A stretch of DNA of 64,000 nucleotides, taken from IMG/VR virus record IMGVR_UViG_3300016667_000484, positions 64,001-128,000 of that record; one strand, 5' to 3'. The DNA comes from a virus. Its lineage: Duplodnaviria; Heunggongvirae; Uroviricota; Caudoviricetes. The translations under genes were made by a program, and so were the position numbers. The notes under the pieces are model-generated. The model searched no databases and had not been told where the DNA came from. It was given only the letters and a program-made list of their open reading frames with translations. The stretch's first letter is position 1; the number at the start of each line of letters is the position of its first letter. Shown one piece after another: positions 4,033 to 50,891 of this stretch.

Positions 4033-4392
4033 TTAGCTATCAGCGACTGTTGAGTCTTCAATAGCGGTATTGCCACTGACACCTGCGTCACCTGCGGCTG
4101 CAGCAGAGACCTTCATTGGGATCAGTGTCTCTACACGACGACGAGTGTTTCCATTCGCGTCGGTGTAGGTTGTGAACAGATTCCAACCTGCGGTCTTAAG
4201 ACCAGCTGCGCGGTTTGAAGTGACAGCGGCTTCAGTCGTGTCGACGAAGAATGCGTTGTTCAGGTCAACTTGGTCTGGAAGACCACCATAATCACGTGCA
4301 GTGTTTGCCGCTGGGGCGATCGAAGTATTTGCTCCATCGAGTAGATACTTTGGTGCCGATGCTCGAGCGTCAGTTTTTCCCCATAGTGCCAT
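4033..4392 (-). CDS. Hypothetical (likely virion) protein
   Basis: MALWGK N-terminus, Ala/Thr/Gly-rich, good RBS. Confidence 0.55.
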   Translation of the reverse strand: MALWGKTDARASAPKYLLDGANTSIAPAANTARDYGGLPDQVDLNNAFFVDTTEAAVTSNRAAGLKTAGWNLFTTYTDANGNTRRRVETLIPMKVSAAAAGDAGVSGNTAIEDSTVADS

Positions 4393-4424: not shown

Positions 4425-5609
4425 TTATTTGTTGTTGGTTTTCTCATCATGATGTGCTTTAGCAGCTTCCATCGAATCGAATTCCTTGAAGTACTTTCGA
4501 TCAGGAGTGTGCACTGCGTAGGTTGCCTTCTTTGGCCACTTGTTGTAGATCTTAGTGATGCGAAGATCTGAAGCTTCGTTGATCTCGACTTCTTCCTTAA
4601 CAGCAGCTTTCTTTGCTGCTGCTTTAGCTTCTGCTGCTTCACGCTTTTTACGATCGGCATCCGCAATCTTATTCAACTGCTTTTCCTTCTTCATAGCAGC
4701 TTTCCAATATGTGTCACGCCAATCCTCTTGAACAACTTCTTCGCCAAAGCGCTTCTTGCCGTGTACTTCTTGAGAAACCTTGTTCACAATATCACGACGG
4801 TTGTCAAGCTTCTCACGGTACTTAACAGACTCTGGACTATTTACGGCGCTCTTCTTAGGACGTCCAGTCTTAGTGTACTTTGAAGGATCACGTGGTCTCT
4901 CGTATTTACCACGACTGGTGAAACGATCAACGACGTCTTGACCACCCTTTTCAACATAGCGCTTCTTCAGTTCAGTTGAGATTTCGTCGATCTGTTCGAC
5001 TTCTTCACGAGCCATGACCTTAGCCTTTGCTTTGTCGGCAGGATAAGTACCAAGCTTCTTGTTCGCGACTGAGATGCCCTGATTGCGATTGCCTACACGA
5101 CGAGCAGCATCATCACGCTCTTTCTTGTCCATTGCCATACCGCCATAGGTTCTAATATTTTTCTCAGCAGTGGTGCGGTCCTTCATAGCAGCCTTTTTGT
5201 CTGCACGGGACTTGTCAATGTAGTTACGAAGAGTTGATGCCGAGACTTCATCGAGTTCGATCTCTTCTTTCACTTCAATCTTGTGTGGATACTTACCTGC
5301 GTGCTTAACTGCCCATGCCTTCGCAGCATCAACAGTTTTGTGCGTGCCGTGATGATAAGAGTGGTCCCAAACGTTGTTTCCTACATCTTGCGAAACACCA
5401 TACTCACCATTTTTGCGCTTAGACACGATGTAGTGATTTGGTTTTTCTTCGTTGAGTCGACGTGCTTGTTCTGCTTCTGCAAGGCGAACGAAGTTCTTAG
5501 CACGAACGTGGGCTGATTCGTTCAATCCTACTGCGCCGTTACGCTGACGACGATAGAAAGCGATCGCCTCGGCAAGTTGCTGATTTGTGTATTGTGAAAA
5601 GTCTGTCAT
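4425..5609 (-). CDS. Modular putative internal head protein
   Basis: Basic modules separated by EEIELDEVS, EEVEQIDEIS, EEVEINEAS spacers. Confidence 0.6.
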   Translation of the reverse strand: MTDFSQYTNQQLAEAIAFYRRQRNGAVGLNESAHVRAKNFVRLAEAEQARRLNEEKPNHYIVSKRKNGEYGVSQDVGNNVWDHSYHHGTHKTVDAAKAWAVKHAGKYPHKIEVKEEIELDEVSASTLRNYIDKSRADKKAAMKDRTTAEKNIRTYGGMAMDKKERDDAARRVGNRNQGISVANKKLGTYPADKAKAKVMAREEVEQIDEISTELKKRYVEKGGQDVVDRFTSRGKYERPRDPSKYTKTGRPKKSAVNSPESVKYREKLDNRRDIVNKVSQEVHGKKRFGEEVVQEDWRDTYWKAAMKKEKQLNKIADADRKKREAAEAKAAAKKAAVKEEVEINEASDLRITKIYNKWPKKATYAVHTPDRKYFKEFDSMEAAKAHHDEKTNNK

Positions 5610-5618
5610 GATTTCCTC

Positions 5619-6284
5619 TTATTCTTCTTCTGAGTTAAAATCTTCTTCGTCGGCCATCTCTGACTCCATGTAGTCAGCAGCGCCAGTGATATAGTCGGTT
5701 GCTAGAACGATGTCTGCTACGATGTGCCCTGGAAGTTCATCGTCATCATCGAGAAGAGTGTGTAGTCTCTTCGCGGCCGCGATCATCATTCTTAGCTGGG
5801 ACTTAGCCATACCACCTTCTTGGCCATATTCGCCGTCGTCTTTAGCTTCACCATACATCTGTTTATACTTTTTCGTATACTGAGACTCTCTGGTTTTTGC
5901 AGTGGCGTCACCTGGTGCTGGCTTATACGCAGAAGGATCATCCCAGCTCTTGTTAGCACCTTTCTTAAAGTGTGCTGCGCGAGCCTTGTCAGTGGAGTTG
6001 TTCCCTGTGCTGTACTTAGAAGATAGCTCGGATTCTCTCAGGTCTTTGTCAGCGGTGTGATAGGTTTTGCCCTTAGTGATATACGAGTTCACTCTCGCCA
6101 TCGCCCATTGTTGTGGAGTTGTGCCGGGACGATGACCGGTGCGCCACGCGGCCATACCTCGGTTATAAACCTTTCTCAGAGTGCCGACCGAAATACCAGA
6201 AGCTTCGGCCTTTTTGGCCAAGCCGGTTTCGGCTGCTTCACTTATGTCAGTCGCTTCAGCTATGATTTGCTTGAATGTTTTCAT
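5619..6284 (-). CDS. Putative internal head protein (DUF5824-like) with capsid-targeting-like N-terminus
   Basis: MKTFKQIIAEA start; LAKKAEASGIS...VYNRGMAAWRTGHRPG..QQWAMARVNS domain. Confidence 0.65.
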   Translation of the reverse strand: MKTFKQIIAEATDISEAAETGLAKKAEASGISVGTLRKVYNRGMAAWRTGHRPGTTPQQWAMARVNSYITKGKTYHTADKDLRESELSSKYSTGNNSTDKARAAHFKKGANKSWDDPSAYKPAPGDATAKTRESQYTKKYKQMYGEAKDDGEYGQEGGMAKSQLRMMIAAAKRLHTLLDDDDELPGHIVADIVLATDYITGAADYMESEMADEEDFNSEEE

Positions 6285-6293
6285 GGTTTCCTC

Positions 6294-9200
6294 TTAGTAC
6301 TTAACGACTGGATTCGGAGTGGAGAAGTTCTTCTTGCGCATGATGGTCTTTGCCACGATGTCGATCTCATCATTCTTCGAGTCGTACTTGACTACTACCG
6401 GCATGTTGAGGTCTGACTGTAGATCCTTGACAACCATCTCTGCACCTGGCTTGTCTTTGAGAGGATTGCCATGCTTAGCGTAGATCTTTTTGATCAAATC
6501 AGCGAGTTCCTTGAGCTTGATCTTAGGCGAGTTACGATCGTCATTCATGCGCTCACCGAAGTGCTTAGTGAACTCAAAGTCGATCTTGAACTTCTCGAAC
6601 ATGCGGTCGACAAACTTCTCGAAGTCCTTCATCTTTGATGCAGTGATCTCGGTGTCCTCTGCTTCCTCTTTGATCGTATGTTCAAATGCCAGTCCAACTC
6701 GAGTGTGCTTCTTCTCGTCGGCGTACTTTTTCAGGAACTTCTTAGTCAGATCAGGGACTGCATTGGTTTCATCTGGCACAGTCTTCTTGAAGTCATCAGC
6801 ATCGACGTCGCCATCAAGGTCGGTGTCGACATGCATCAAGGCGTCTTTACCAATGTGCTTGAATGGAACACCGATTCCGAGCTCATGCTTGAATGGCTTC
6901 TTGTCTTCGCTGACTTGAACAACACTCGTCTTATACTTGTTTGGGTGTCTCTCAAGTTCTTTAGCGAGTTGTGTTGCCTTTTCGTGAGACATCGGTGTAG
7001 CATGCTTGATGTGCTTCTTGATCAGGTGTGCTGATGGTGTAGTATGCACGTCAAGGTAATGATCTTGCTTGTAGAATGGACTTTTGCCCTTCACCACATA
7101 CTTCTTTTCTTCAAACATATCTTCGAACGCTTCGTTGATACCATCAGTGATCTTTGGCTTAGTGACTACACCCTTTTCGCCTGGAGTAGCAGCTTTATAG
7201 TTTGAGACCAACTTGTCAGTACCTTCGAATCCAGCACCATAGCTCTCGTGATAGGTGCGGAACTTCTTCATCTTCTGATCGCGAGAAGTCACCGCACGAA
7301 GATGACGCTCGATGTGAGCATCAATCTCTGCTTTCGTGTTGACGTCCTTTGGCGCAGGAGGAATCACTGGTGCAGGGATCTCAGCTTGGTGCATGCTCTT
7401 CGGAGTAGATCTTCCAAGTGCTGGACCGGGAATGACTACGGCTTCACCGAGGTGACCATGTGAAGCGATCCATGCTTTCGCAGCTGGGCTCTTTGGCGGG
7501 TTCTTCGCCCAGGTCGAGATCTTCTTGTAGGTGTTCAGAATGGCTGGTTCAACTTCTTGTCCGGCCGAGTTGTCGATGATGTACATGTTGTTGCCAAAGT
7601 ACTGCTGGAACTTGCCGATGTTGTGCTGCACTTCTGACCACATAGTCTCGACTTCGCTGTCTGGCAGAGAGCGAGTGCGCATTTTGTTACGAGTCTTAGC
7701 TGTATCGAGGCTGGTGTTAACAAAGATCATCGCTACGTCGTAGCCGATCTTCTTTAGCTTCTCAGCTTGCTTCTCGATCTTTCCAAAGTCTTTACCAGTT
7801 CCGTCGATCACGAGACCAAGGCGGCCATGAACTGCGTGGTCCATGAGCTTACCAGTCAAAGCTTTTGCTTGACCACGAATCTCTTGACCTTTTGGCGAGT
7901 AGATGTTCTCAGGTGTTGATGCCATTCCCGCTTTCGCTAGAGCACGTTCGAACGCGTCATCGGAGTTGATGACTTTCATACCAAGTGCGGTGAGTGCGGT
8001 TCTACCGACGATGAATGACTTGCCAGAACCTGGACCACCAGCAAGGAAAACTGCCTTGAAGATAGATGGATCGTGTACACCTTCGTTCAGTGCTACTTCA
8101 AACGCCTCGTTGATGTGATTCGTCACGAGAGCGTTGACGTTGTCGAATCCGGCTTGCTCTTCAGTCTTCGATTCACTCAGGTTGTACATACCTTCGATGA
8201 ACGCCTCGAACACTACTTCAAAGTCAAGGCCTGACTTCTGTGACTTCTCGATAAGAGCCATCGCGATCTTGATGTCCTCAGGCGACTCGTCAAATGCCTC
8301 TTGAATCACATTGAGGAGTTCAGTGTCAGTTTGTTCATGATGCATGATGTTGCGGAACGCACGGAAGCGACGATCAAGCTTCGCTTTGTTGTGCTTGTCG
8401 AACACCATGTGATAACGTGGCTTTGTGCCTTCTTCAAGGAAAGCTTCAAACGATTCATTGATGTGGCTATTAGGTTGACCTGGGACGTGATGACCGGTTC
8501 CACCTTGGCCACCTTTGCTCAAGAGAGCAACACGAGCGAACTCAGCTTTACGTACAGTAGGAAGGAGTCGTGCTGCGATCTTCGCGATCGATCTTTTTCT
8601 TTCCTCGACACGCTTGTCGATCATGATCTTTTCTGCTGGCGAGAGGGATGCGTACTCGAGACCCTTTTCACCTGCTACTTTTCTACGAATGATCTGAATA
8701 GCTTTCTTACGAGCACGACCCTCAAGGTGCTTTTGGTCAGCGATGCGAGTACGTAGGCGCTCGCGGGACATCTCCATCTTTTTCTCGAGACGACGAGCTG
8801 TGATAGCACGCTTCATTCTCTCAGCGACGCTAAGCACGTGTTCTTCTAGTTCTACTTCTTCTGCCAATTTCATACCACCTCTAACTAGGCTATACACTTC
8901 GTCTGCGTGCTTCTGTAGGTTCTTTGGAAGACCGGTTTTGAATTTTGCTGAGTCACCTTTCGATGCGGCTTCTCTCATCTTTGACGCTGACATACCTTCA
9001 ACGCCTTCGGCATCAGGATCTCTCTCACCAGCAGAAACGACTTCGATCGACTTGAAGTTGAACTCCTTGCCGTTATACTTCTTTAGTAGTGTATCGAATT
9101 CTTGTACACGATCAGCACCGGCGACAAACACCACGTTATCGAAGTGACCGGTCAGAGACTTCATCACGTCGATTAGGGTTTTTGCTGGTGCTTTTTGGAT

Positions 9201-9506
9201 GATAGAACCGAATGCTTCTTTTGCGAGCATGATCTTGTCGTCGTACGACAGAGGGTTCTTTTTTGCGTCTTGAGAGTGGCTAAGGTATACTTGAGCGACG
9301 CCATTCGCCTTCTTTGCCAGATCCTTAACCTTGTTGACTAGCTTCTCATGGCCAACTGTTGGAGGGTTCATTCTTCCAAAAGAAACTACTGCGGTTTTAG
9401 CGTTCGCTTCTTTCAGTTCAGGATTCAGAATGATGTTGCTATTTTGACCACCGACGTTCTTATCATCAGGCGTCTTCTTTGCTTTCTTTGGCTCTACTGC
9501 CATCAT
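6294..9506 (-). CDS. Multidomain protein: HIGH-type nucleotidyltransferase + helical modules + zeta-toxin-like P-loop kinase + C-terminal RelE/BECR-like domain
   Basis: FGRMNPPTVGHEKL; VFLAGGPGSGKS...VIDGTG; C-terminal FTKHFGERM; late promoter upstream. Confidence 0.75.
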   Translation of the reverse strand: MMAVEPKKAKKTPDDKNVGGQNSNIILNPELKEANAKTAVVSFGRMNPPTVGHEKLVNKVKDLAKKANGVAQVYLSHSQDAKKNPLSYDDKIMLAKEAFGSIIQKAPAKTLIDVMKSLTGHFDNVVFVAGADRVQEFDTLLKKYNGKEFNFKSIEVVSAGERDPDAEGVEGMSASKMREAASKGDSAKFKTGLPKNLQKHADEVYSLVRGGMKLAEEVELEEHVLSVAERMKRAITARRLEKKMEMSRERLRTRIADQKHLEGRARKKAIQIIRRKVAGEKGLEYASLSPAEKIMIDKRVEERKRSIAKIAARLLPTVRKAEFARVALLSKGGQGGTGHHVPGQPNSHINESFEAFLEEGTKPRYHMVFDKHNKAKLDRRFRAFRNIMHHEQTDTELLNVIQEAFDESPEDIKIAMALIEKSQKSGLDFEVVFEAFIEGMYNLSESKTEEQAGFDNVNALVTNHINEAFEVALNEGVHDPSIFKAVFLAGGPGSGKSFIVGRTALTALGMKVINSDDAFERALAKAGMASTPENIYSPKGQEIRGQAKALTGKLMDHAVHGRLGLVIDGTGKDFGKIEKQAEKLKKIGYDVAMIFVNTSLDTAKTRNKMRTRSLPDSEVETMWSEVQHNIGKFQQYFGNNMYIIDNSAGQEVEPAILNTYKKISTWAKNPPKSPAAKAWIASHGHLGEAVVIPGPALGRSTPKSMHQAEIPAPVIPPAPKDVNTKAEIDAHIERHLRAVTSRDQKMKKFRTYHESYGAGFEGTDKLVSNYKAATPGEKGVVTKPKITDGINEAFEDMFEEKKYVVKGKSPFYKQDHYLDVHTTPSAHLIKKHIKHATPMSHEKATQLAKELERHPNKYKTSVVQVSEDKKPFKHELGIGVPFKHIGKDALMHVDTDLDGDVDADDFKKTVPDETNAVPDLTKKFLKKYADEKKHTRVGLAFEHTIKEEAEDTEITASKMKDFEKFVDRMFEKFKIDFEFTKHFGERMNDDRNSPKIKLKELADLIKKIYAKHGNPLKDKPGAEMVVKDLQSDLNMPVVVKYDSKNDEIDIVAKTIMRKKNFSTPNPVVKY

Positions 9507-9559
9507 TTTCTCCTTACATCACAGGTTTACCTAGGCCTAACTGCGGTTGGTTTTGATTC

Positions 9560-9567
9560 TATTTATA
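9560..9567 (-). promoter_or_regulatory. T4-type late promoter TATAAATA
   Basis: Exact consensus upstream of the 1070-aa gene. Confidence 0.8.
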
Positions 9568-9574
9568 GTTTGGG

Positions 9575-10252
9575 CTATCTTAAGTTGTTTCTAAATGAAT
9601 CAATGAAGTGATAGTTGACTTCTGCAGACTCAGCCCAAAGCGTAGATTTTCTTAGCCATGCGATAGCTGGAGTTGGTTCCATCATCGCGAGAGGAGTTTT
9701 ACTTCCACGTTGTCCGCGAATGAAGTACGCGTTATCAACACATCCAAGGATACCTCTAGTCTCGATCTCTTGGACCAAAGTTCTAGCGGTATGACCGGTC
9801 ATGGCATACGCATGAGCTCCTTCATGACCATCGATGTCAAACACTCTGGTCGGAGGGCCGGCGGTGACGTGATCATACCGAGTGTGATCTCTCAGCTTAT
9901 AACCTAAAACAACTATTCTATTATCTGGCACATCAATGTCAATAGGATGAAGCATCAAAGCGTCGTGTTCGAGGACGACCGCACACTCGTCTCGGTCTCC
10001 GATGAGTTTCCAGATCGCAGCGTGCCCAGCTGAACAGCACGTTGGATTATCGATCATGTGATCGTATCGAGTCAAGTCGTTTGGATACTTGATCCCCGTG
10101 GCGTCCCAAGACGCTCTTGGATTCATTGCGTGGTATCCTTCAAAGAACTCGAATGGTAAACCAACATCGCGACATGACTGCGCAGCACCTTCGGCGTATC
10201 CACGAGAAAGAGGAGTGTCGATCCTTAAGATGTATGCTTTAGTAGGTTTCAT
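9575..10252 (-). CDS. Glycosyltransferase family 25-like protein
   Basis: CCSAGHAAIWK...VVLEHDA and GAHAYAM patterns typical of GT25. Confidence 0.65.
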   Translation of the reverse strand: MKPTKAYILRIDTPLSRGYAEGAAQSCRDVGLPFEFFEGYHAMNPRASWDATGIKYPNDLTRYDHMIDNPTCCSAGHAAIWKLIGDRDECAVVLEHDALMLHPIDIDVPDNRIVVLGYKLRDHTRYDHVTAGPPTRVFDIDGHEGAHAYAMTGHTARTLVQEIETRGILGCVDNAYFIRGQRGSKTPLAMMEPTPAIAWLRKSTLWAESAEVNYHFIDSFRNNLR

Positions 10253-10253
10253 G

Positions 10254-10895
10254 TCAGACTCCACGTGAGTAATCAGTGCCGCCACCTGTCGATCCCCACA
10301 GGTGCTTAGCGTATACTTTGTCTGTTCCAGAGTATTTGTAGTTAGGATCGTAGTGATCTGGGATGAAGTAATGAGAAGGCCAGATCGTGATCTTCGGCTT
10401 ATATTTTGGAATCACACGAGAGAGCCAAGCGTTACCGGTTGATTCCCACGGATGTGGGCTGAGCTGAAGAGGATAGAGCGTGTGCAACTCATCGATCAGT
10501 TGTTTGACAAACACGTTTCCCGGATTGCACGCAAGAATTGGTTGAACATATCCGCTTCGTGCGACTTCCTGCTCATAACAAGTGTAGCAATAGTCGGGAG
10601 GTGAAGTGAAGAGCTCTTCAGTGTTCTCGAGGCAAAGGAAGTCTGCTTCAGGGAAGAATCCGCCACGTTCATACAACAGCTCGTAGCGAATCAGATCTGA
10701 GACTCCACTGTATAGACCCTTAGCGAAGTAGTGCTCGATCAAGTGTTGGTTGTGAAATTTGCGGGACTCAAGATCTCTCTGGGTGAAGACTGAGTACTCC
10801 CAATCAGGGTGTTTCTCTTTCCATGTATTCATCCACTTAACAGGTGCTGGTCGTGGGCCGATCCAGATCTGCGTCATAATCTTATCAATGTTCAT
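10254..10895 (-). CDS. Glycosyltransferase family 32-like (DXD sugar-binding) protein
   Basis: IMTQIWIG...WKEKHPDWEY...SDLIRYELLYERGGFFPEAD. Confidence 0.75.
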   Translation of the reverse strand: MNIDKIMTQIWIGPRPAPVKWMNTWKEKHPDWEYSVFTQRDLESRKFHNQHLIEHYFAKGLYSGVSDLIRYELLYERGGFFPEADFLCLENTEELFTSPPDYCYTCYEQEVARSGYVQPILACNPGNVFVKQLIDELHTLYPLQLSPHPWESTGNAWLSRVIPKYKPKITIWPSHYFIPDHYDPNYKYSGTDKVYAKHLWGSTGGGTDYSRGV

Positions 10896-11446
10896 TTTAC
10901 AGTATACCACACGAAGTCATCAGTTTTGTTGTATTGGTTTTCAAAGTTCTTTTCAACGGCTCCTTTCACTGAATCGAAATGAATGTCATGCCCGATGATG
11001 AACCCGCCACGCTTAACTTTGGGCGACCAGTTCACGATGTCGTCGTCGACTCCTTTGAAAGAATGATCGGCGTCGATGAAAACGAAGTCTAACGAATTAT
11101 CAGGGATCAGCTTAGCCACTTCAGTTGTATATCCCTTGTGGAATACCGCTCGAGGTGCATGCTGAGCACAGAAGTCCATGATGTCACGGTAGTAGTGTTC
11201 ATGATTCCACGAGTGGCCGTTTTCACCCGGAAGCCATTTCTCTGGTCCAGTGTTTTCCGGCTGTGGTTCGTAGAGGTCTACGCCGATAAGTGTGAGGTTT
11301 GGGCAGTTGTTTATTAGATACTTGAAGGTGTGCCCTTCCCATGTTCCAAGCTCTGCGCCAGTCTTCCAACCATAAGTATTGCACCAATTCGCGATAGACT
11401 GCCATCTCCAGATGTTTCCACCATTATGTCCGCGGTCGTAAATCAT
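10892..11446 (-). CDS. Class I SAM-dependent methyltransferase (Methyltransf_24-like)
   Basis: GAELGTWEG, DFVFIDADHS, KRGGFIIGHD motifs. Confidence 0.8.
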   Translation of the reverse strand: MIYDRGHNGGNIWRWQSIANWCNTYGWKTGAELGTWEGHTFKYLINNCPNLTLIGVDLYEPQPENTGPEKWLPGENGHSWNHEHYYRDIMDFCAQHAPRAVFHKGYTTEVAKLIPDNSLDFVFIDADHSFKGVDDDIVNWSPKVKRGGFIIGHDIHFDSVKGAVEKNFENQYNKTDDFVWYTVK

Positions 11447-11460
11447 ATAGTTCTCCCAAT

Positions 11461-11486
11461 AAAAAAGGAGAGTCGAAACTCTCCTT
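11461..11486 (-). terminator. Rho-independent terminator
   Basis: 9-bp stem, TTCG loop, followed by T6 on the minus strand. Confidence 0.8.
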
Positions 11487-11511
11487 GACTCTATTCATAT
11501 TTATGAGAATC

Positions 11512-11652
11512 TCAGTGCCAACGGATTCCACGGGCATCAAGTTCTTTCATTCTGCGCTCAAGATCTACATGATCATACGATTCAGCGAGATAGTTATGAG
11601 CGTAGGTTCTTTCATCGAATCGACCAAAGAGTTTTCTGAAAAATTTGATCAT
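11512..11652 (-). CDS. Small protein, DUF3563-like (46 aa, not in ORF track)
   Basis: MIKFFRKLFGRFDERTYAHNYLAESYDHVDLERRMKELDARGIRWH; TGATG coupling to upstream gene. Confidence 0.5.
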   Translation of the reverse strand: MIKFFRKLFGRFDERTYAHNYLAESYDHVDLERRMKELDARGIRWH

Positions 11653-11888
11653 CACTTCGATTCCAAGATGTCGTAGATGCGGCCCTGTCTGACCATGTGT
11701 TCAATGAACTCGATCGACTCGAACTTGTATTCGCTCTTCAACTTTTGTGCGATCTCAGCGTACTGCTTGTCTTCACTCTGCATAAGCATGAGTGATACCA
11801 TCTTGTCGATCGACTTGTAGATTCCTGTTCCGATTGCTGTACTCAGCGGATTGAGTACTTTTGCAGTCTCGATAACTGCGCTGTTCAT
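11652..11888 (-). CDS. Hypothetical protein
   Basis: Short ORF, coupled to downstream ORF. Confidence 0.4.
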   Translation of the reverse strand: MNSAVIETAKVLNPLSTAIGTGIYKSIDKMVSLMLMQSEDKQYAEIAQKLKSEYKFESIEFIEHMVRQGRIYDILESK

Positions 11889-11983
11889 ATCTTTTCTCCG
11901 TAAATAGCCCAATTGCTATACGGTTATATTTATCACAAAAAGTCGACAAGTAGAATAGACATTATGTCATAGCCGGTAGTCAC

Positions 11984-13282
11984 TTATGTGACTTCTTCCC
12001 AATCCATAGACGCAAGAACGGTGTCAGAGTTAGCTCCACCTGCAATGGCTAGTGTGAAAGTAAATGGCGTTGACGTGAAGCCGTTTCTTTCGAGTTGGTA
12101 TCTGAATGGTGCACCATCGAGAGAGATGACCGGTGCGCTTTGGTTAGACACCGTTGTGTAACCCGTGATCAAAGATGTTGCGTCTGACATAGCTGTGCCG
12201 CTGATGTTGTATTCAACACATGAATCATCACCAGCCGAAACCCATGTTCCACCAGTTATAGTAGATCCGACAACAAGTTTGTATGCGTAACGGCCTACGT
12301 TAGAGGTACCTAGGACGCTGATGTTTTTCGGTAGAACTACCGCGTCAAGACGAGTAGATTTTAGACGAATCGACATCACAGGGTAGTATGTTCCACCAGT
12401 GGTTAGCGTATATGGAGTAGTGATAGGATGTGCTGCTGTACGTTGTTTTCCACGTAGCTCATAGCCACCCTCTGAAATTACTGTAGCACATATGATTCGA
12501 AGTGTACTTGAGCTAGCGGTGGCTGATGTATTTTCAATCTCTGCTCTGACTGGCAAACAAGCCGTAGTCATATACGTATTCGTCAAGGCGTTTGAGTGGT
12601 GGAAGCTATGGCAATGAATGAACTGCCCATCGATCACAAAGCCCATTCTAACTGAACCAACACCAAGCCACTCGATGTCAATGAAAAGGATCTGAGCCTT
12701 CGTCAAGTCAAGCGTTTTGAGAGAAGGTCCTGTACCGTCAAGCTTATCTACGTTCCAGTCGGCTTTTGCTACACGAGTATCAACTACAGAACCGGTCGTA
12801 TAAGAGCGTCTTACGAAGTAAATTTCAGTTCCATCTTGCTCGAGGAACATACCGTTTTGTTCGCCAAAGAACCCATAGCGTTGTCTAAGCCCAGCTTTAG
12901 GCGCTGCCATCACAAATGTTTCGAGTATCTGAAGAGACTTACCTGGTTGATACGCGAACACTCTCGATGATTCTCTCTTTATGAAAGATCCACTAGAGGT
13001 ATCGACTGTGCAAACGATGCTACTTGAATTTATGTCATGCGACATCGTGGCGCCCGTCGCGCTGTTCGCGGAGCTGATGCGGCCGTTGTCTTGATAACGG
13101 TGGAACGAATCAAATAGCGTAAATGGTTGAGACATCCTTTGGCGACCAAACGCGTCAAGTGCTACACCAGTTGGATTCGCTCCACTGACGTTGTTGCCAT
13201 ATTGATCTGCCAACATCACCGTCTCAAACAGTGTCTTATTGTCGCCAGAAAAACGATGAGTGTTTTTGTTAAACTGTGCCAT
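11984..13282 (-). CDS. Putative virion structural protein (beta-rich)
   Basis: DAFGRQRMSQPFTLFD motif recalled from T4-like cyanophage structural proteins; S/T/G-rich. Confidence 0.55.
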   Translation of the reverse strand: MAQFNKNTHRFSGDNKTLFETVMLADQYGNNVSGANPTGVALDAFGRQRMSQPFTLFDSFHRYQDNGRISSANSATGATMSHDINSSSIVCTVDTSSGSFIKRESSRVFAYQPGKSLQILETFVMAAPKAGLRQRYGFFGEQNGMFLEQDGTEIYFVRRSYTTGSVVDTRVAKADWNVDKLDGTGPSLKTLDLTKAQILFIDIEWLGVGSVRMGFVIDGQFIHCHSFHHSNALTNTYMTTACLPVRAEIENTSATASSSTLRIICATVISEGGYELRGKQRTAAHPITTPYTLTTGGTYYPVMSIRLKSTRLDAVVLPKNISVLGTSNVGRYAYKLVVGSTITGGTWVSAGDDSCVEYNISGTAMSDATSLITGYTTVSNQSAPVISLDGAPFRYQLERNGFTSTPFTFTLAIAGGANSDTVLASMDWEEVT

Positions 13283-13290
13283 GATCTATC

Positions 13291-13665
13291 TCACCATGCA
13301 CGGCAAGACCAGTAACGTGCCCTGTCTTTTGGCTTAGGAACTGAAGGGTCGTCACAGCCATGACGTGCACGGAATGACTTACGACGGGCTGGGTTGTTCT
13401 TCTTGATCGTCATGTTTGGATCACCAAACTCGACTTTCTTCGCCTTGCCATCACCGTCTGGATCAACGTAAACCTTTGACTTCTTGACGTCACCAGACAT
13501 TGGTTTATTCAAGGGAACTTCGCGACCTTTGTAAGTCGCTTCATCAAGATCTTCGTCTTCCTTGATGCCTTTTTCGTTACGCGATGCCCAGACTGCTTTA
13601 CGCTGAGCGTCACTCTTGTATTCTTCTGTTTGAAGGAACTGTAGAAAACTCTTCATCGTTGCCAT
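13291..13665 (-). CDS. Putative internal head protein (DUF6321-like)
   Basis: MKSFLQFLQTEE N-terminus; FGDPNM..RRKSFRARHGC..ARYWSCRAW. Confidence 0.6.
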   Translation of the reverse strand: MATMKSFLQFLQTEEYKSDAQRKAVWASRNEKGIKEDEDLDEATYKGREVPLNKPMSGDVKKSKVYVDPDGDGKAKKVEFGDPNMTIKKNNPARRKSFRARHGCDDPSVPKPKDRARYWSCRAW

Positions 13666-14882
13666 CCTTTCATTACGTCGGCAGAGAAGTTTGCGTGGCT
13701 GAATTGCAGACGATCAATTAACTTCACTGCGTTCTTGCCCATGTGATCGATCGCGACGAATCCTTCTTGCTCAGTGACTTTATAGCCGTCAGTAGTCTTA
13801 AGGAACGTTCCGATCTGTTTTGCTTTGTCGAGCTTACGCACAACCATATGCTTAGCGTCAACAATCAGGTCATACATGGTAAAGATGTTCACAATTTCTG
13901 ATTTAGGTGTATTTGAGAAGTACTTCATCACCTCAGCGCGTTTGGCTTCCCATGCCTCTTTGCTCTTTGGTGTTGCCTTCTTGTCAATTTCTTTCTGATA
14001 GTAGTCGTGTACGTATTTGATCAAATCGTCAACGAATCTACTCGTGTCTCCGATGCGTTCACCAACTTTTACCTTTGAGTTGATGAAGGCTTTTACTCGA
14101 ATGAGAAGCTCTTCGTTATCGGACATACCATCGAGAGAAGATCTCTTCAGGCCAGAGAAGATCTTCCCGGCCTTTGACAAGATCTCAGTGATCTCTTTCG
14201 TCTCAGCTGCGTTGAAGTTTGCCGAACCCGAGACGTCTTTGTACATCGCGTCTACTGACCAGACCGATTTCGTTTTCTTGAGGCGGCTTGCGATCTCCTC
14301 TCCAAAACTCGCTGACATTGACTCAAGAGAGTCTCCTCGGTATGTAGTGTGCCAGACCACGCCAATTCTTGAGGCAAGGATTTCACGAGCGAGTTGACTG
14401 TTCTTCGGTACCGCGTAAACAATCGTGTTAGGATGAAAAGTAATATACGGTTCTCCGTCAATATCCACTTCTCGTAGATCTTCTCTCGAATATAGGAAGT
14501 CACCTTGAACCACTCCTGTAATGCCCAGCTTAGACAGCTCTTCAAGAGCAACCTTAAGCTTTGCGTTCAAATCACCTGATGTGTCTGCATCAATATCAGC
14601 TGGTGTCTTATACACCTTGGGATCTTTGTTGAAGATCCCCTTCTTTGCGACGAAGAACTTCCCGTCACGAGGATCGATGCCAGCGAACACAGCCGGCGCG
14701 CCGTCCCATTTGATGGTTACGTTCGAAGATTTAGTTGCGTTTCCCGCAAGCATGTCACGAAGAGAGCGAAGGAAGTTGATAGACTGACGAGCACCTTCGA
14801 CACCAGCATTGAGGATGTTGTCCTCGATGTGCTCCATGTGAGTGTTCTTAGCTTCAGTGAGGAACGTATTGAATCTGATCAT
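13653..14882 (-). CDS. DUF6267-like protein with ligase-type nucleotidyltransferase motifs
   Basis: MIRFNTFLTEAKNTHMEHIED start; TIKWDG, QGDF, EGFV, VKL motifs. Confidence 0.6.
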   Translation of the reverse strand: MIRFNTFLTEAKNTHMEHIEDNILNAGVEGARQSINFLRSLRDMLAGNATKSSNVTIKWDGAPAVFAGIDPRDGKFFVAKKGIFNKDPKVYKTPADIDADTSGDLNAKLKVALEELSKLGITGVVQGDFLYSREDLREVDIDGEPYITFHPNTIVYAVPKNSQLAREILASRIGVVWHTTYRGDSLESMSASFGEEIASRLKKTKSVWSVDAMYKDVSGSANFNAAETKEITEILSKAGKIFSGLKRSSLDGMSDNEELLIRVKAFINSKVKVGERIGDTSRFVDDLIKYVHDYYQKEIDKKATPKSKEAWEAKRAEVMKYFSNTPKSEIVNIFTMYDLIVDAKHMVVRKLDKAKQIGTFLKTTDGYKVTEQEGFVAIDHMGKNAVKLIDRLQFSHANFSADVMKGWQR

Positions 14883-15664
14883 AGCTGAACCTTAGGTTTT
14901 ATCGTACCGCTAGTCATGTGGTAGATGAAGATTTCGTTCTGCTTCACCTTCTTAACCGCTTCGATGTCGCCTTGCTTAGATGTCTTGCTGTTGTTGATGA
15001 AGATCACTTCGTGGTTTTTGAAGTATCCATCGTAAGCGATCTTAGCAAACTTTTCTTCAATCGCGTTGAACTCTGCTGGTGCTTTCTCCTTCATCGTCTG
15101 TAGTACAGTCGGTGCGATCTCGGTCGAGGTACCGGCCAGGCCAAGTCTTAGACGAAGCTGGTTGAGTTCTTTCTTTGTCTCGTCGATGGGAACAGTGCCA
15201 CCAAGCTTGAAGTCATAGGCTTGACGATCGCGACTCACCGACACTGCCTTTACTTCGTATCCAGTTGATCCGACGATCACGTCTAGACCTGCCGAAGATC
15301 CACCACCGAGCTTACAGTTGTTGATGAGAAAGTACAGCGTGACTTCACCTGGGCCAATGCCCTTTAGATTATAGCTATGGAGCTTCTTGAACATCGACAT
15401 GTCTTCTCTCTTGAGCAAAGATATGAGTCTGTTCAACGTTGTCAAGTTGACGCCATCAGTGGTTTTTGAGATGTCAAACTTAGGGAAGAAATGCATATTG
15501 AAGAGATACTGAATCTCTTTCTTATGTGTTGTTGAAGTAAATTCAGTCGCCGGAATATTGAACGAAGAAATTTTCAACGCATTGTTAATGAACTCCATGT
15601 TCAAGTCTGCCACGGTGATCTCCGATCCTGATGTTTCTTCTACAAAGACTCTAAAGCGTTTCAT
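14879..15664 (-). CDS. Putative PD-(D/E)xK-fold nuclease with capsid-targeting-like N-terminus
   Basis: MKRFRVFVEE start at 15664; GPGE...LDVIVGSTGYEVKA. Confidence 0.45.
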   Translation of the reverse strand: MKRFRVFVEETSGSEITVADLNMEFINNALKISSFNIPATEFTSTTHKKEIQYLFNMHFFPKFDISKTTDGVNLTTLNRLISLLKREDMSMFKKLHSYNLKGIGPGEVTLYFLINNCKLGGGSSAGLDVIVGSTGYEVKAVSVSRDRQAYDFKLGGTVPIDETKKELNQLRLRLGLAGTSTEIAPTVLQTMKEKAPAEFNAIEEKFAKIAYDGYFKNHEVIFINNSKTSKQGDIEAVKKVKQNEIFIYHMTSGTIKPKVQL

Positions 15665-15686
15665 AGGATTCCTCTTAACTTTAGAG

Positions 15687-15694
15687 TATTTATA
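15687..15694 (-). promoter_or_regulatory. T4-type late promoter TATAAATA
   Basis: Exact consensus upstream of the 15664 start. Confidence 0.8.
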
Positions 15695-15722
15695 AAACAA
15701 AGGAGGAGCCTCAGCTCCTCCT
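15694..15722 (-). terminator. Rho-independent terminator
   Basis: 9-bp stem AGGAGGAGC/GCTCCTCCT followed by a T-rich tract on the minus strand. Confidence 0.7.
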
Positions 15723-15983
15723 CATCTGTGATACTTCAATGGCCTGTTCACCGCTTGTGATGGGTACTGCGTTGGACTTATGCATAGTCGCAATCCCCAT
15801 GATGTAGTCGCCGGTGTATACATTAGCGGCTTTCTTAGCACCATTTCCTGCGATGCCATTCGTCAGTTTAGCGTTCTCGGTTATGCCTTCTCTGAGGTTG
15901 ACGTGTTCTACGCCTTGTAGCTTAGTCCTCTTCGTGATACCTATCGAAGCGAGCCACGCCTCGTGCCGGGCCTGTGCTTCCAT
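15711..15983 (-). CDS. Hypothetical early protein
   Basis: C-terminal GIATMHKSNAVP pattern; start uncertain. Confidence 0.5.
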   Translation of the reverse strand: MEAQARHEAWLASIGITKRTKLQGVEHVNLREGITENAKLTNGIAGNGAKKAANVYTGDYIMGIATMHKSNAVPITSGEQAIEVSQMRRS

Positions 15984-45715: not shown

Positions 45716-47008
45716 TTAGAGGATGTTGGTAACGCGGACCTTGCGGTAGTACTTGTTAGCGTTAGCGTTAAGAGCGCCAGCGCCAACCGACAGACCTTCA
45801 GCGAATGGGTTAGCAACCATGCCGTAACGGGTTTTGAAGCCGATCTTCGACTGGAAGCTGTTCTCACCCACAGCGCGGACCATCTGCAGAGGAACATATG
45901 GGCAGTAGAAGAGGCCAGCGTCGAAGGACGAAGCACCCTTGTAACCTACAACCAGGTAGTTCGAGGTAGCATATGGGTCGATGTACACACGGAAGCGACC
46001 GTTAAGCACACCAGCGAAGGTGTTGCCGGTGTCGTCAACGTTCAGTGCGTTGCTGTTGAGAGCTGGGGTGTAGTCAAGGACACCAGCCATTTGCAGAGCC
46101 GATGCAACATCGCTCGAGCAGATGACCATGTTACCCTTACCACGACGGGTGTCTTTTGCGATCTGGTTAGCTTCGCGTTCGATCTGGAACATCAGACCCT
46201 TGAACTTCTCAACTGACCAACGGCCGTTAGCATCGACGTCGAGGTCGAATGTACCAGCAGCTGCCGTACCAGTTTGAGCACCAACAACCGAAACACCATA
46301 AACCGTGCGAACAACTTCACGGTTGATTTCTGCAAGCAGTTCAGCCTGAAGCATGTTTGCGAGTTCCGACTCAGCGTCAAGACCGTGGATTGCCTTCAGG
46401 TCCTGTGCGAGTTCAGTGGTGTACTCAGCCTTCAGTGCGCGGCTCTTTGCAGTGACCGACACTTTTTCGATGCTGAATGACATCTGGTTGAAGTCACCAT
46501 CACCTGCGCCACCCATGCCGAGACGTTCAGCAGCCGAGGTTGCCATACCAGTACCCGTGCCCCACTGTGAAGTGTTAGCAAAGTCGGTTGGGAAAGGCGA
46601 ACCGGTGTGAGTGCCGGTACCGGAGAAGTCGGTGTCAGCTTCGTTGTAGAAAGCTTCTGCCGTTGCTGCGGTGGTGTTTGCGTAGTTCGAACGCATCGCG
46701 AAGATGAGGCCGGTAGGACCGGTCATTGGCTGAACACCTGCGATGTCGTAAGCAATGAGGTTAGGCATTGCACGGCGAACGAGGGTGATAAGCACTGGGT
46801 CGTAGTTCTGAGCTACACCGGTGTTGTTGACATGTGCTGCTTCCGACAGGAACGAAGCTGGCGAATAGGTTGAACCTTCCTTCAGCGCCGATTCTGTATT
46901 CTCAAGAAGCTGAGCTGTAACAGCCTTGCGGTGATTGTCCTTAATTCCTGGAAGCGAATTGTGCTCCAGAACAGGACCCCACTTCTTCATTAGTTCTTCA
47001 TTTTTCAT
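45716..47008 (-). CDS. gp23: Major capsid protein
   Basis: GVQPMTGPTGLIFAMR, KSRALKAEYT.ELAQDLKAIHGLDAE, FYCPYVPL, GFKTRYG. Confidence 0.99.
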   Translation of the reverse strand: MKNEELMKKWGPVLEHNSLPGIKDNHRKAVTAQLLENTESALKEGSTYSPASFLSEAAHVNNTGVAQNYDPVLITLVRRAMPNLIAYDIAGVQPMTGPTGLIFAMRSNYANTTAATAEAFYNEADTDFSGTGTHTGSPFPTDFANTSQWGTGTGMATSAAERLGMGGAGDGDFNQMSFSIEKVSVTAKSRALKAEYTTELAQDLKAIHGLDAESELANMLQAELLAEINREVVRTVYGVSVVGAQTGTAAAGTFDLDVDANGRWSVEKFKGLMFQIEREANQIAKDTRRGKGNMVICSSDVASALQMAGVLDYTPALNSNALNVDDTGNTFAGVLNGRFRVYIDPYATSNYLVVGYKGASSFDAGLFYCPYVPLQMVRAVGENSFQSKIGFKTRYGMVANPFAEGLSVGAGALNANANKYYRKVRVTNIL

Positions 47009-47054: not shown

Positions 47055-47966
47055 TTAGATTTTGCCAAATTTGTCAAGCGAAGCAACATACGCTGCAACT
47101 GCTGGATTAACCGCAGGAGCCTTTTCGTCTACTTCTTCTTCAAGAACTTCAGCGTGATCTTCACCGCGAGCAACTGACTCAGTGAAATAGCTTTCCTTGA
47201 TTGTCTCAAGCTTTGCGACGAAGTCTTCTACTGATTCGTAGGAAACACCTTCAGCAAGAGTTTGGAAACGTGCTACGTCAGTAGCGACCATGCCTTCTGA
47301 GAGAGCAGCAAATGCTACGTTCTTTTGAAGTTCTTCTTTTTCTGCACGCTCAGCGATGAGTGCTTCGAAAAGTTCGTTGTACTTAGCTTCAGTCTCAGCG
47401 ACTTGCTCTTCCATTGCTGCGATAGCGTCAGCTTCACCTTCCTCGATTTCGAGGTCGTGATCTTCAACAAGAGCCTTGAGGCCATTGAGGATCGACTCAG
47501 CAACTTGTACCTTGTAGCCAGTCTCGAGAGCGACTTCGTTCTCAGCCATCCAGTTCTCGATAACGTAGTCGAGGTATGAATCGAGCTTGTCAGTCAGTTC
47601 TTCGATAACAGCTTCGGTCTGCTCTTCAAGAGCAGCTTCGAATTCTTCTTCGAGTTCTGCACGAACTGCTTCGACACGCTCATGAATAGCTGCTTCGAAA
47701 ATAGTCGTGGTCTTCGACTTGAAGTCTTCCGAAAGGTCAGTGCCGTCGAACAGAGATGCAATCATCTCCTTCAGGCCAGTGTCGTTCGAACCCATAGGAG
47801 TCTTCACGTTCTTTTCGATGTCTTCTGGTTTGCCGGTAGCGTCGTCTTGAAACTTGTCTGCTAGACGTTTCTTGACTGGACCGCCAGCGCCGGTTACTGG
47901 ATCAGCTGCATACGACTTTTCGCCGGTTGCCCACTTCTCTTCCAGGTTGTTTAGATTTGCATCCAT
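47055..47966 (-). CDS. gp22: Prohead core scaffold protein
   Basis: LSEDFKSK..TIFEAA, DSYLDYV..WM.EN; acidic coiled coil. Confidence 0.92.
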   Translation of the reverse strand: MDANLNNLEEKWATGEKSYAADPVTGAGGPVKKRLADKFQDDATGKPEDIEKNVKTPMGSNDTGLKEMIASLFDGTDLSEDFKSKTTTIFEAAIHERVEAVRAELEEEFEAALEEQTEAVIEELTDKLDSYLDYVIENWMAENEVALETGYKVQVAESILNGLKALVEDHDLEIEEGEADAIAAMEEQVAETEAKYNELFEALIAERAEKEELQKNVAFAALSEGMVATDVARFQTLAEGVSYESVEDFVAKLETIKESYFTESVARGEDHAEVLEEEVDEKAPAVNPAVAAYVASLDKFGKI

Positions 47967-48035: not shown

Positions 48036-48698
48036 TTATAGGCTCTTGAGGAACTTTTCAAATACCGCAATTACGGCAGCTTCATCAATTTGACTATAAT
48101 TCTTCTTCACTTGTTCTTCAATACGGTCAAACGCGTTTGCCGCTCTCCAAGATGAAGAAGCCACGTCATAAACCCACTCAACACCTTCCATAATACCTTT
48201 CACAAAGGCATCTGGTGCAGAAGGATCGGCGACAATATCGCCAGCAGTTGCAAGCATGAAGTCATTCTGGACTTCCATGATACCCTGCTTATTGGGCTTT
48301 ACCGAACCCATACCACGAGACGAGATACCGAGTTGAGCGCCAGAGTCGATCAGTCCCTTGACGACATCACCCATCGGTGTCTTAGTGATCTTTGCTTTGC
48401 CGACGACGTTTGAGCCGTCTGCCTTTAGTTCCGTGAAAAGGTGGGAAACCCGATCAAGGTTGATAGTTGGTCCTTGAGGGTGACCAAGTTCTCCAAACGC
48501 ACGATTCTTCGTGACGTAATTGTCGTTGTAGCGATTCATCTCACGAATCAAGACGTTCGAAGGATAGATTCTGCCATTTCTGTTCTTAATATCACCTTGC
48601 ATGATGATACCTTCGATGAAATAGTTCTTCTCACCCTTTTCGCTTGATTCAGTCAGATAACGAACTTCTTCAACGATTTCTTTAATGAGTAGTGCCAT
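48036..48698 (-). CDS. gp21: Prohead protease
   Basis: NRNGRIYP, GELGHP, GISSRGMGS, DIVADPSAPDAFV. Confidence 0.97.
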   Translation of the reverse strand: MALLIKEIVEEVRYLTESSEKGEKNYFIEGIIMQGDIKNRNGRIYPSNVLIREMNRYNDNYVTKNRAFGELGHPQGPTINLDRVSHLFTELKADGSNVVGKAKITKTPMGDVVKGLIDSGAQLGISSRGMGSVKPNKQGIMEVQNDFMLATAGDIVADPSAPDAFVKGIMEGVEWVYDVASSSWRAANAFDRIEEQVKKNYSQIDEAAVIAVFEKFLKSL

Positions 48699-48714: not shown

Positions 48715-48957
48715 TTATTTATAAGCTATGGCAACACAATTAACAGCAACGCTCGCTGCAATCGTATCAGTGGGTTCTTTGATAAAGAACTGCTCATTAC
48801 CGGCAATCATAGTGTATGTGCCAATAGTTCCTGAGGTGTTTGCAAAGGTGAGTACCGACGCGTTTGGTGCATGCACTCTGACGAGTGCAGCGCCTCCGAC
48901 GGTGTTAGCCGTCGTGACGCTGATCTCTGTTCCTTTGACTTTGATGTAGTCAGCCAT
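48715..48957 (-). CDS. Small hypothetical head-region protein
   Basis: ORF track; beta-rich; TAATG coupling. Confidence 0.55.
   Translation of the reverse strand: MADYIKVKGTEISVTTANTVGGAALVRVHAPNASVLTFANTSGTIGTYTMIAGNEQFFIKEPTDTIAASVAVNCVAIAYK
48716..48723 (-). promoter_or_regulatory. T4-type late promoter TATAAATA
   Basis: Upstream of gp21. Confidence 0.75.
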
Positions 48958-50879: not shown

Positions 50880-50891
50880 TTGATCACCTTA

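Follow-up and report, generated by a model that had tools for sequence, protein, structure and literature searches.

The window analyzed here is a stretch of 64,000 nucleotides, bases 64001-128000 of a 195,338-bp viral contig (IMG/VR record IMGVR_UViG_3300016667_000484; 46.8% G+C). Several of its late genes, among them genes of a locus at positions 4425-15664, encode proteins that begin with a decapeptide of the form M-x-x-F-x-x-[FY/IL]-[LIVF]-x-E. This decapeptide, or tag, is probably the clade's counterpart of the capsid targeting sequence (CTS) of phage T4, which was reportedly described by Mullaney and Black in 1996 for the internal proteins IPI, IPII and IPIII. In the N-termini studied here it behaves as a portable module that ends in a putative cleavage site, [ILV]-x-E, of the type used by the T4 prohead protease gp21. 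The CTS of the T4 internal proteins has been reviewed (PMC9026906).

PHROG scans assigned the window phage to the T4 superfamily and identified tail tube, sheath, gp43 polymerase, UvsX and gp41 helicase genes in addition to the head genes described below. Among sequenced phages, those that encode the closest relatives of the locus proteins are phage C48C1, Stenotrophomonas phage DLP6, Methylophilales phage Melnitz, Pelagibacter phage HTVC008M and the cyanomyoviruses. The window phage and these relatives share a gene order in which gp43, UvsX and gp41 are followed by the locus. A megablast search of the locus against phage genomes gave no match.

Tagged Genes and Their Putative Late Promoters

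All locus genes lie on the minus strand. Four of them encode tagged proteins: a 221-amino-acid (aa) DUF5824 protein (5619-6284) starting MKTFKQIIAE/A, where the slash here and below marks the presumed cut; a 121-aa protein of phrog_7595 (13291-13656) starting MKSFLQFLQTEE; a 409-aa DUF6267 protein (13653-14882) starting MIRFNTFLTE/A; and a 261-aa protein (14879-15664) in which MKRFRVFVEE is followed by an 8-residue spacer. A fifth tag, MIKFSKLFE, begins a 640-aa repeat protein (48957-50879, minus strand) encoded between the portal and the prohead protease. These five N-termini had been singled out in the initial annotation of the window, and all of them were present where it had placed them.

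Two of the starts lie within longer open reading frames (ORFs). The sequence MKSFLQFLQTEE begins at the second Met of ORF 13291-13665. Its ATG, at 13656, is likely the true start of the gene because it forms an ATGA overlap with the stop codon of the upstream gene. The tag MKRFRVFVEE falls inside ORF 14879-15700. We take 15664 as the real start, giving a protein of 261 aa, since the sequence TATAAATA (15687-15694, minus strand) is found 23 nucleotides upstream of this ATG, behind a terminator-like element. The latter is a G+C-rich hairpin with a T-run (approximately 15695-15723) that ends the upstream gene.

The window contains 17 copies of the sequence TATAAATA, where 0.9 would be expected, and this sequence precedes the genes for the major capsid protein, scaffold, protease, tail tube and sheath. 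Its number and its position before head genes suggest that promoters of the T4 late type are in use. Both operons of the locus are headed by it, at 15687 and, upstream of the gene for a 1070-aa protein, at 9560-9567 (minus strand). The late promoter sequences that the initial annotation had given for these two sites were thus present there, and its placement of the tagged genes in late operons was supported.

Three tagged genes lie outside the window; their products are an Acb1-like protein of 164 aa and proteins of 335 and 101 aa. In the upstream regions of the 335-aa and 101-aa genes, at genome positions 172931 and 41547, respectively, the sequences GATAAATA and AATAAATA are found about 25-35 nucleotides before the ATG. 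From their sequence these may be variant late promoters.

Enrichment and Consensus of the Tag

The strict pattern M..[FY]..[FYILMV][FILMV].{0,2}E was scored on the whole 195-kb genome. It fitted eight true N-termini, five in the window and three outside it, whereas of 1181 internal Met positions only 2 matched (Fisher p = 5e-5). When the columns of all N-termini were shuffled 2000 times, the mean was 0.61 matches and the maximum 4, so the tag is about ten-fold enriched. The looser regular expression with which the tags had first been described was rejected, as it also matches internal Met positions and non-coding frames.

The residues that define the tag are conserved. In 120 metagenomic homologues of the 409-aa DUF6267 protein (72-91% identity) the start reads M-x-x-F-x-x-[FY]-[LI]-x-E-x-KNTHM; positions 4, 7, 8 and 10 are conserved, and positions 2, 3, 5, 6 and 9 vary freely. 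Related contigs yielded 106 distinct tags, whose consensus is M-[KLI]-[SKRT]-F-[KR]-x-[FY]-[LI]-x-E-[AEGD]. Position 4 is Phe in 95 of these tags and Tyr in 11; position 7 is Phe in 48, Tyr in 48 and Leu in 9; position 8 is Leu in 48, Ile in 42 and Val in 12; and position 10 is Glu in 101 of the 106. The Glu is displaced in MKSFLQFLQTEE, where it is residue 11, and in some tags that have it at position 9. The tag occupies residues 1-10, or up to about residue 18 when a spacer is present, and lies outside the folded cargo.

The T4 sequences agree with this consensus. MKTYQEFIAEA, the start of IPII and IPIII, fits it, and the IPI start MKTFKEFTST agrees at positions 1-7. In amber-suppressor mutagenesis of T4 IPIII, residues 4 and 7 were found to act in targeting and residues 8 and 10 in processing (PMC9026906).

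The Tag Is an Optional and Portable Module

The tag can be present or absent at the start of otherwise orthologous proteins. The DUF6267 orthologues of the cyanophages S-SZBM1 (S-SZBM1_141) and S-PM2 (p138) begin MAKNTHLEHLED, exactly past the predicted cut. Among 150 DUF6267 representatives (clustered at 50% identity) about half are tagged and many begin at the core, and those that are fused to another protein keep [ILV]-x-E-[AS] before the core. Of the representatives with a leader of any kind, 102 of 110 have [ILVMF]-x-E immediately before the core, compared with a background of 13%. The 261-aa family behaves similarly: about one-third of the homologues have a tagged extension of 18-20 residues (including MKRFRxFIKEE, MLSFQQYITER and MYSFTRYLQEE), and the others begin at the conserved core.

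Modules that are tagged when encoded separately are preceded by related sites when fused. A kinase module is a separate protein in Melnitz (MKTFAELQEG/VYDPNIFK) and HTVC008M (MIPFILKEG/LYDPGIFK), and it is internal in the window phage, behind INEAFEVALNEG/VHDPSIFK. All 12 distinct borders of this module have the form h-x-E-G, within MK.F..F..EG when the module is separate and E[LF][ED]L[ED]EG when it is fused. Conversely, the DUF5824 module, a separate tagged gene in the window, is internal in Melnitz and HTVC008M, behind EEFQLDE/ and DIEIDE/, respectively. In Melnitz the 121-aa module forms the C-terminal part of a fusion with the cytidylyltransferase.

The specificity of the tag was assessed in 80 IMG/VR contigs that encode a DUF6267 protein of 53-74% identity, together with the flanks (1255 plus-strand ORFs). 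Tagged ORFs numbered 134 and fell into 21 families. DUF6267 was tagged in 50 of 77 cases; the other named tagged families were the cytidylyltransferase polyprotein, the stand-alone kinase, a 206-aa DxDxT HAD-like phosphatase, an HD_4 hydrolase and DUF6321, and for more than 10 tagged families no relatives are known. The tag was absent from all of the roughly 250 other orthologues that these contigs encode, 113 of which are the replication proteins gp41, UvsX or gp43. Taken together, these sequence comparisons support a reading of the N-termini as portable modules of the T4 CTS type, each with a gp21-type [ILV]-x-E site at its end.

Three of the tagged proteins of the related contigs have other noteworthy features. 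The HAD-like phosphatase shows a weak match to the HAD domain of the "Swiss Army Knife" RNA repair proteins, a 105-aa protein falls just below the Pfam cut-off for a phospholipase-A2-like domain, and one tagged polyprotein is 1622 aa long.

Homologues in the Virions of Relatives

Virion proteomes have been reported for several cyanophages with homologous genes. The cytidylyltransferase S-SZBM1_140, which starts with the tag MRFRQFIIEA, and its neighbor S-SZBM1_139 were detected in CsCl-purified virions; the untagged S-SZBM1_141 (DUF6267) and S-SZBM1_142 were not (PMC9146016). S-SZBM1_190, the orthologue of an untagged 432-aa protein of the locus, is also part of that proteome (PMC9146016). In S-SCSM1 an NMNAT-like protein and the products of four neighboring genes were identified as virion proteins by mass spectrometry (PMC9602691). 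This NMNAT-like protein starts MKSFLQFLKEA, nearly the same sequence as the tag of the 121-aa protein. Virions of S-CREM2 contained a cytidylyltransferase and a kinase (PMC10665884). Our literature search, over the papers that were searchable, found no paper that ties the virion enzymes of cyanophages to a CTS, a propeptide or gp21 sites, and the PhiM9 paper has nothing on the cytidylyltransferase or on internal proteins.

Predicted Activities of the Proposed Cargo

The DUF6267 protein is probably an RNA-ligase-like covalent nucleotidyltransferase, a prediction based on its structural model and conserved motifs. In an alignment of 102 sequences with a mean column identity of 37%, K58-x-D60-G61, D128, E373-G374 and K387 are invariant and correspond to ligase motifs I, III, IV and V. 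The AF2 model calculated from this alignment had a predicted local distance difference test (pLDDT) score of 93.9 and a predicted template modeling score of 0.90, with residues 1-10 disordered (pLDDT 39); it replaced a first model from 27 close homologues (pLDDT 57.9), which was dropped. The best non-helical structural matches were all RNA ligases, at middling Z-scores: Naegleria Rnl (PDB 5cot; Z 8.2, 188 residues aligned, root mean square deviation 4.0), REL1 (PDB 1xdn; Z 8.0), Trl1-LIG (Z 7.7), T4 Rnl2 (Z 7.5) and T4 Rnl1 (Z 6.4). The top Foldseek matches were DNA ligases, and these were weak (E 0.06). An atlas search returned no named family, and a literature search on DUF6267 found nothing. 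The model has a helical insert of about 130 residues between motifs III and IV, and His-15 and His-18, which lie near the N-terminus predicted for the mature protein, are invariant or almost invariant.

The 1070-aa protein (6294-9506, minus strand) resembles a polyprotein, with an NMNAT/cytidylyltransferase-like N-terminal module and a P-loop kinase; two further modules, the C-terminal one among them, have no assigned function. The N-terminal module has the motifs TVGH and SASKMR and matches Pfam CTP_transf_like (23.7 bits against a cut-off of 21), phrog_395 (6.5e-42) and the cytidyltransferase family phrog_3041 (1.2e-69). The kinase has the P-loop GGPGSGKS, matches AAA_33 and Zeta_toxin at about 1e-10 and also hits a polynucleotide-kinase PHROG weakly. 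Tag-like sites of the form [HG]INE[SA]FE..[LF].E[EG], which keep the F/+3/+4/+6 spacing of the tag, occur at residues 353, 469 and 794. The modules of this protein are separate tagged genes in related phages, and the internal sites fall at module borders.

The 164-aa Acb1-like protein (genome positions 181725-182219, minus strand) is a 2H phosphodiesterase by profile (PF23474, 50.7 bits; cut-off 27), and its sequence contains the two H-x-[TS] motifs, FHTT and PHVS. It starts MLGFKDFMEKA; nearly all of 120 homologues start M..[FL][KR].[FY][MIL], and several start MKTFKEFTS like T4 IPI. In the T4 genome (NC_000866: 18966-19130, 73591-73878, 73952-74410) the hypothetical 54-aa protein gp61.1 has the CTS-like start MKTFKEFIKED, and the ipI gene directly adjoins acb1/57B, whose product starts MMEFKDFSTG.

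The 261-aa protein is a candidate nuclease of the PD-(D/E)xK-like type. Its core has the invariant residues E107, D128, E137 and K139 (E...D...ExK). Atlas leads to Eco47II, SmaI and HinP1I were weak (0.82), and the protein had no Pfam, PHROG or PDB sequence match. Searches of the PDB with the DUF6267 and 261-aa proteins, as single sequences and as profiles, gave nothing meaningful, and no protein of the cohort had a meaningful family score in NCBIfam. A phmmer comparison of all modules with the T4 proteins gave no match at E <= 1; the cargo is therefore not homologous at the sequence level to the T4 internal proteins, Pnkp or Rnl.

Of the enzyme classes named in the initial annotation, nucleotidyltransferase, kinase and ligase-like hold as predictions. 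"Nuclease-like", given to the 261-aa protein, was not borne out in the same way, as its basis is the invariant E...D...ExK pattern and a weak language-model lead. The expectation of a set larger than the internal proteins of T4 agrees with the eight tagged proteins and the 1070-aa polyprotein with its internal tags.

The Head Core and the Maturation Protease

The window encodes a prohead maturation protease of the gp21 type (48036-48698, minus strand; phrog_207, E 5.5e-77) with 34% identity to T4 gp21 (E 2.7e-23). Other head genes encode a gp22-like scaffold (47055-47966, minus strand; phrog_237) with four internal F..hh.E sites, a gp23-like major capsid protein (45716-47008, minus strand) and the portal (51491-53086). 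The likely cleavage site of the major capsid protein propeptide, SFLSE/AA, resembles the tag ends FLTE/A and IIAE/A. A complex prediction for the scaffold and the tagged 121-aa protein scored 0.01, which is uninformative either way.

A second class of putative site is the acidic linker EE[VIF][ED](x)[LI][EDN]E, as in EEVEQIDE/LS, EEVELEE and EEIELDE/VS. Of the 15 occurrences in the genome, 14 sit in four proteins. Two belong to the head cluster: the 640-aa protein, with seven linkers of the EEVEQIDE type, and a 195-aa protein (50892-51479, minus strand) with three. The others belong to the locus: a 394-aa protein (4425-5609, minus strand), which has the variant N-terminus MTDFSQYTNQQLAE/A and the linkers EEIELDE, EEVEQIDE and EEVEINE, and the 1070-aa protein, with one linker, EEVELEE, at residue 216. 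The 640-aa and 195-aa proteins are encoded where T4 has the core proteins gp67 and gp68, and the former is, from its sequence, a probable prohead core protein. In both (48957-51479), linkers of the EEVEQIDE type separate repeats of a basic unit, ..LS.DKLR.YY.KAGADRKKA.., and cutting at these linkers would yield a set of small basic peptides.

These proteins raise the question of whether the tagged and linker-rich proteins might all be components of the prohead core or scaffold, to be cut, degraded and expelled like T4 gp22, gp67 and gp68. Nothing active would then be delivered, and the enzymes would act, if at all, in the producing cell. The 640-, 195- and 394-aa proteins fit such a role: they are rich in repeats and in acidic linkers, they lack an enzyme domain, and two of the three occupy the gp67/gp68 position; the scaffold itself has similar internal sites. 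Nevertheless, we consider this explanation unlikely. Enzyme-bearing homologues, namely the NMNAT-like proteins and their neighbors, came from CsCl-purified virions of S-SZBM1, S-SCSM1 and S-CREM2, the cut sites lie at module borders and not within enzyme folds, and the T4 internal proteins and Alt show that cargo of the CTS type can be retained.

Proposed Mechanism and Its Standing

We regard a CTS-like loading and processing system as the best explanation of the data, and one that is likely to be correct. The tagged proteins would be made late. The tag, as a short amphipathic helix outside the folded domain, would bind the assembling scaffold core, so that the proteins become part of the prohead. 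The gp21-type protease would then cut after the Glu of [ILV]-x-E, removing the tags, and would also split the 1070-aa polyprotein and the 394-, 640- and 195-aa proteins with acidic linkers into modules. Mature cargo would stay in the head with the DNA. It would comprise the DUF6267 RNA-ligase-like enzyme, the NMNAT-like nucleotidyltransferase, the P-loop kinase, DUF5824, the PD-(D/E)xK-like protein and small proteins, together with the Acb1-like 2H phosphodiesterase encoded elsewhere in the genome. Its likeliest action would be the healing and sealing of RNA ends and nucleotide-based counter-defense before phage transcription.

Core binding, cleavage after Glu, retention in the virion, ejection into the cell and action there are all steps that we infer, and they differ in firmness. 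Packaging and cleavage in this phage are strongly inferred from the sequences. Ejection and a role in counter-defense are suggested by analogy with T4 IPI*, T4 Alt and P1 Dar.

Might the pattern instead be a by-product of expression signals, such as A/T-rich first codons, or a generic amphipathic start that targets nothing? The codons of Lys, Thr and Phe are indeed A/T-rich, matches to the regular expression are near chance in T4 and some relatives, and T4 gp61.1 and Acb1, which are not known to be packaged, start similarly. However, conservation is at the amino-acid level and at the spaced positions 4, 7, 8 and 10, with the others free. In addition, fused proteins contain the motif internally, at the borders between modules, where initiation plays no part; the tag comes and goes as a block; and it is missing from the roughly 250 other orthologues of the same contigs, including the 113 replication genes. 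We therefore hold this account to be very improbable.

The least probable alternative is that the tag and the [ILV]-x-E linkers serve the cytoplasmic assembly or polyprotein processing of an RNA-repair or nucleotide-metabolism complex, unrelated to the capsid and perhaps using another protease: the ligase, kinase, nucleotidyltransferase and HAD or 2H phosphoesterase modules do form a coherent pathway and are fused in varying orders in different phages, but the locus encodes no other protease, the same tag occurs on the 640-aa core protein of the head cluster and on many unrelated small proteins, homologues are detected in virions of relatives, and the tag matches the T4 CTS residue for residue.

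Several observations weigh against a CTS-like system. Applied to T4, the strict pattern finds IPII, IPIII and gp61.1, 3 observed against 1.3 expected, which is not significant. The regular expression is thus not very specific, and the count is weak evidence by itself; it is conservation and modularity that carry the case. The 1070-aa protein has no N-terminal tag, internal tags are not known from T4, and we know of no precedent for loading through them. The Acb1-like gene has no nearby late promoter, which bears on its temporal class. Many Acb1-like homologues keep positions 4, 7 and 8 and have no Glu, and T4 Acb1 itself starts MMEFKDF, so the N-terminus of this family may be intrinsic to the family or fold rather than a loading tag; a point on the other side is that several homologues share the start MKTFKEFTS with T4 IPI, whose gene is the neighbor of T4 acb1. 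For the cyanophage proteomes, the authors themselves considered carry-over of abundant late proteins possible. Finally, the window phage is uncultured and known from sequence alone, and ejection of enzymes of 25-45 kDa through the tail is assumed from the precedents of T4 Alt and IPIII.

Untagged Genes of the Locus

The initial annotation had described about 11 kb of the window as encoding many packaged proteins. This stands for several tagged genes and not for the stretch at 9575-13282, in which the 432-aa gene, two small ORFs, a methyltransferase gene and two glycosyltransferase genes are untagged; the whole locus as cargo was rejected on account of the untagged glycosyltransferase, methyltransferase and 432-aa genes. 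The 432-aa protein (11984-13282, minus strand; phrog_1645) is a virion structural protein. Its gene lies downstream of the 121-aa gene and pairs with it, as do S-SZBM1_190 and S-SZBM1_191. A Methyltransf_24 S-adenosylmethionine-dependent methyltransferase, a DXD glycosyltransferase and a GT25 glycosyltransferase are encoded at 9575-11446 (minus strand), inside the late operon and between structural and cargo genes. They are found in few related contigs.

Just beyond the locus, at 4033-4392 (minus strand), there is a gene for a 119-aa protein (start MALWGKTDA) whose conserved family includes S-SZBM1_136, S-SCSM1_95 and HTVC008M gp135. Members have been detected in cyanophage virion proteomes and are annotated as structural or tail-fiber proteins.

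Implications and Relation to Known Systems

If correct, the proposed system would explain the recurrence of NMNAT-like enzymes and kinases in cyanophage virion proteomes, where they could not be distinguished from contamination. With it, a simple rule applied to the sequence would serve to predict which proteins are carried in the head, and where the protease cuts, in a group of phages that is abundant in water and soil. The CTS principle, which in T4 concerns a few small proteins, would be extended to over 20 families of cargo, among them polyproteins and entire enzyme pathways. It would also point to counter-defense that acts before transcription and give DUF6267 a probable activity, that of an RNA ligase by its structural model. 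The tag may help to load foreign proteins into such capsids.

A broader form of the proposal can be stated more tentatively. A general system of CTS tags and [ILV]-x-E sites might load cargo across the cyanophage- and pelagiphage-like branch of the T4 superfamily. The cargo would be a pre-made enzyme kit (RNA ligase, polynucleotide-type kinase, HAD or 2H end-healing enzymes, an NMNAT-like nicotinamide adenine dinucleotide (NAD) enzyme, HD hydrolase and Acb1-like phosphodiesterase) that is ejected with the DNA and neutralizes RNA-cleaving, NAD-depleting and cyclic-nucleotide defenses before phage transcription. We consider this full form possible but doubtful.

The closest parallel is with the T4 internal proteins. 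In both cases an N-terminal propeptide of 10-19 residues has an aromatic residue at position 4, hydrophobic residues at 7 and 8 and Glu at 10, and in both there is a protease of the gp21 type, a constant tag with variable cargo and plastic loci; the late expression of the T4 genes is matched here by expression predicted to be late from the promoters. The cargo differs: the T4 internal proteins are small and basic, whereas most of the proteins described here are large enzymes or multidomain polyproteins without sequence homology to them. Tag-like sites are here also internal, at module borders, and at least 21 cargo families occur across the clade in a system so far known from its genes. T4 Alt, a packaged ADP-ribosyltransferase cut by gp21 at both ends, offers a precedent for an enzyme that is loaded into the head, processed by the protease and injected to act before phage transcription. 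It is of another enzyme class, and it is a single protein, whereas several of the enzymes here seem to form a pathway.

Among cyanomyoviruses, the virion NMNAT-like, cytidylyltransferase and kinase proteins of S-SCSM1, S-SZBM1, S-CREM2 and S-CBWM1 are orthologues of the N-terminal module found in the 1070-aa protein; they are encoded in the same syntenic block downstream of gp41, and two of them are tagged. The proteome papers report detection only and leave contamination open. Giant phages of the phiKZ-like group and SPN3US also package many head proteins, including enzymes, that are cut after Glu at A/S-x-E, and the packaged Dar proteins of P1 are anti-restriction cargo. These systems belong to other lineages and have other cargo, and their propeptides exceed 100 residues with no shared decapeptide.

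The predicted enzymes themselves recall RNA repair. The ligase, kinase and 2H phosphoesterase resemble, by functional analogy, the healing-and-sealing sets formed by Trl1 (ligase, kinase and 2H cyclic phosphodiesterase, in fungi and plants) or by T4 Pnkp with Rnl1 and Rnl2. The DUF6267 fold aligns best to the adenylyltransferase domains of Rnl2, Rnl5, REL1 and Trl1-LIG, and a P-loop kinase module and a tagged 2H phosphoesterase are present in the window phage, with a tagged HAD phosphatase in relatives. The Z-scores, however, range only from 6.4 to 8.2, the sequences show no similarity to those of T4 Pnkp or Rnl, and the 2H protein scores best as the anti-CBASS protein Acb1 and not as an RNA cyclic phosphodiesterase.

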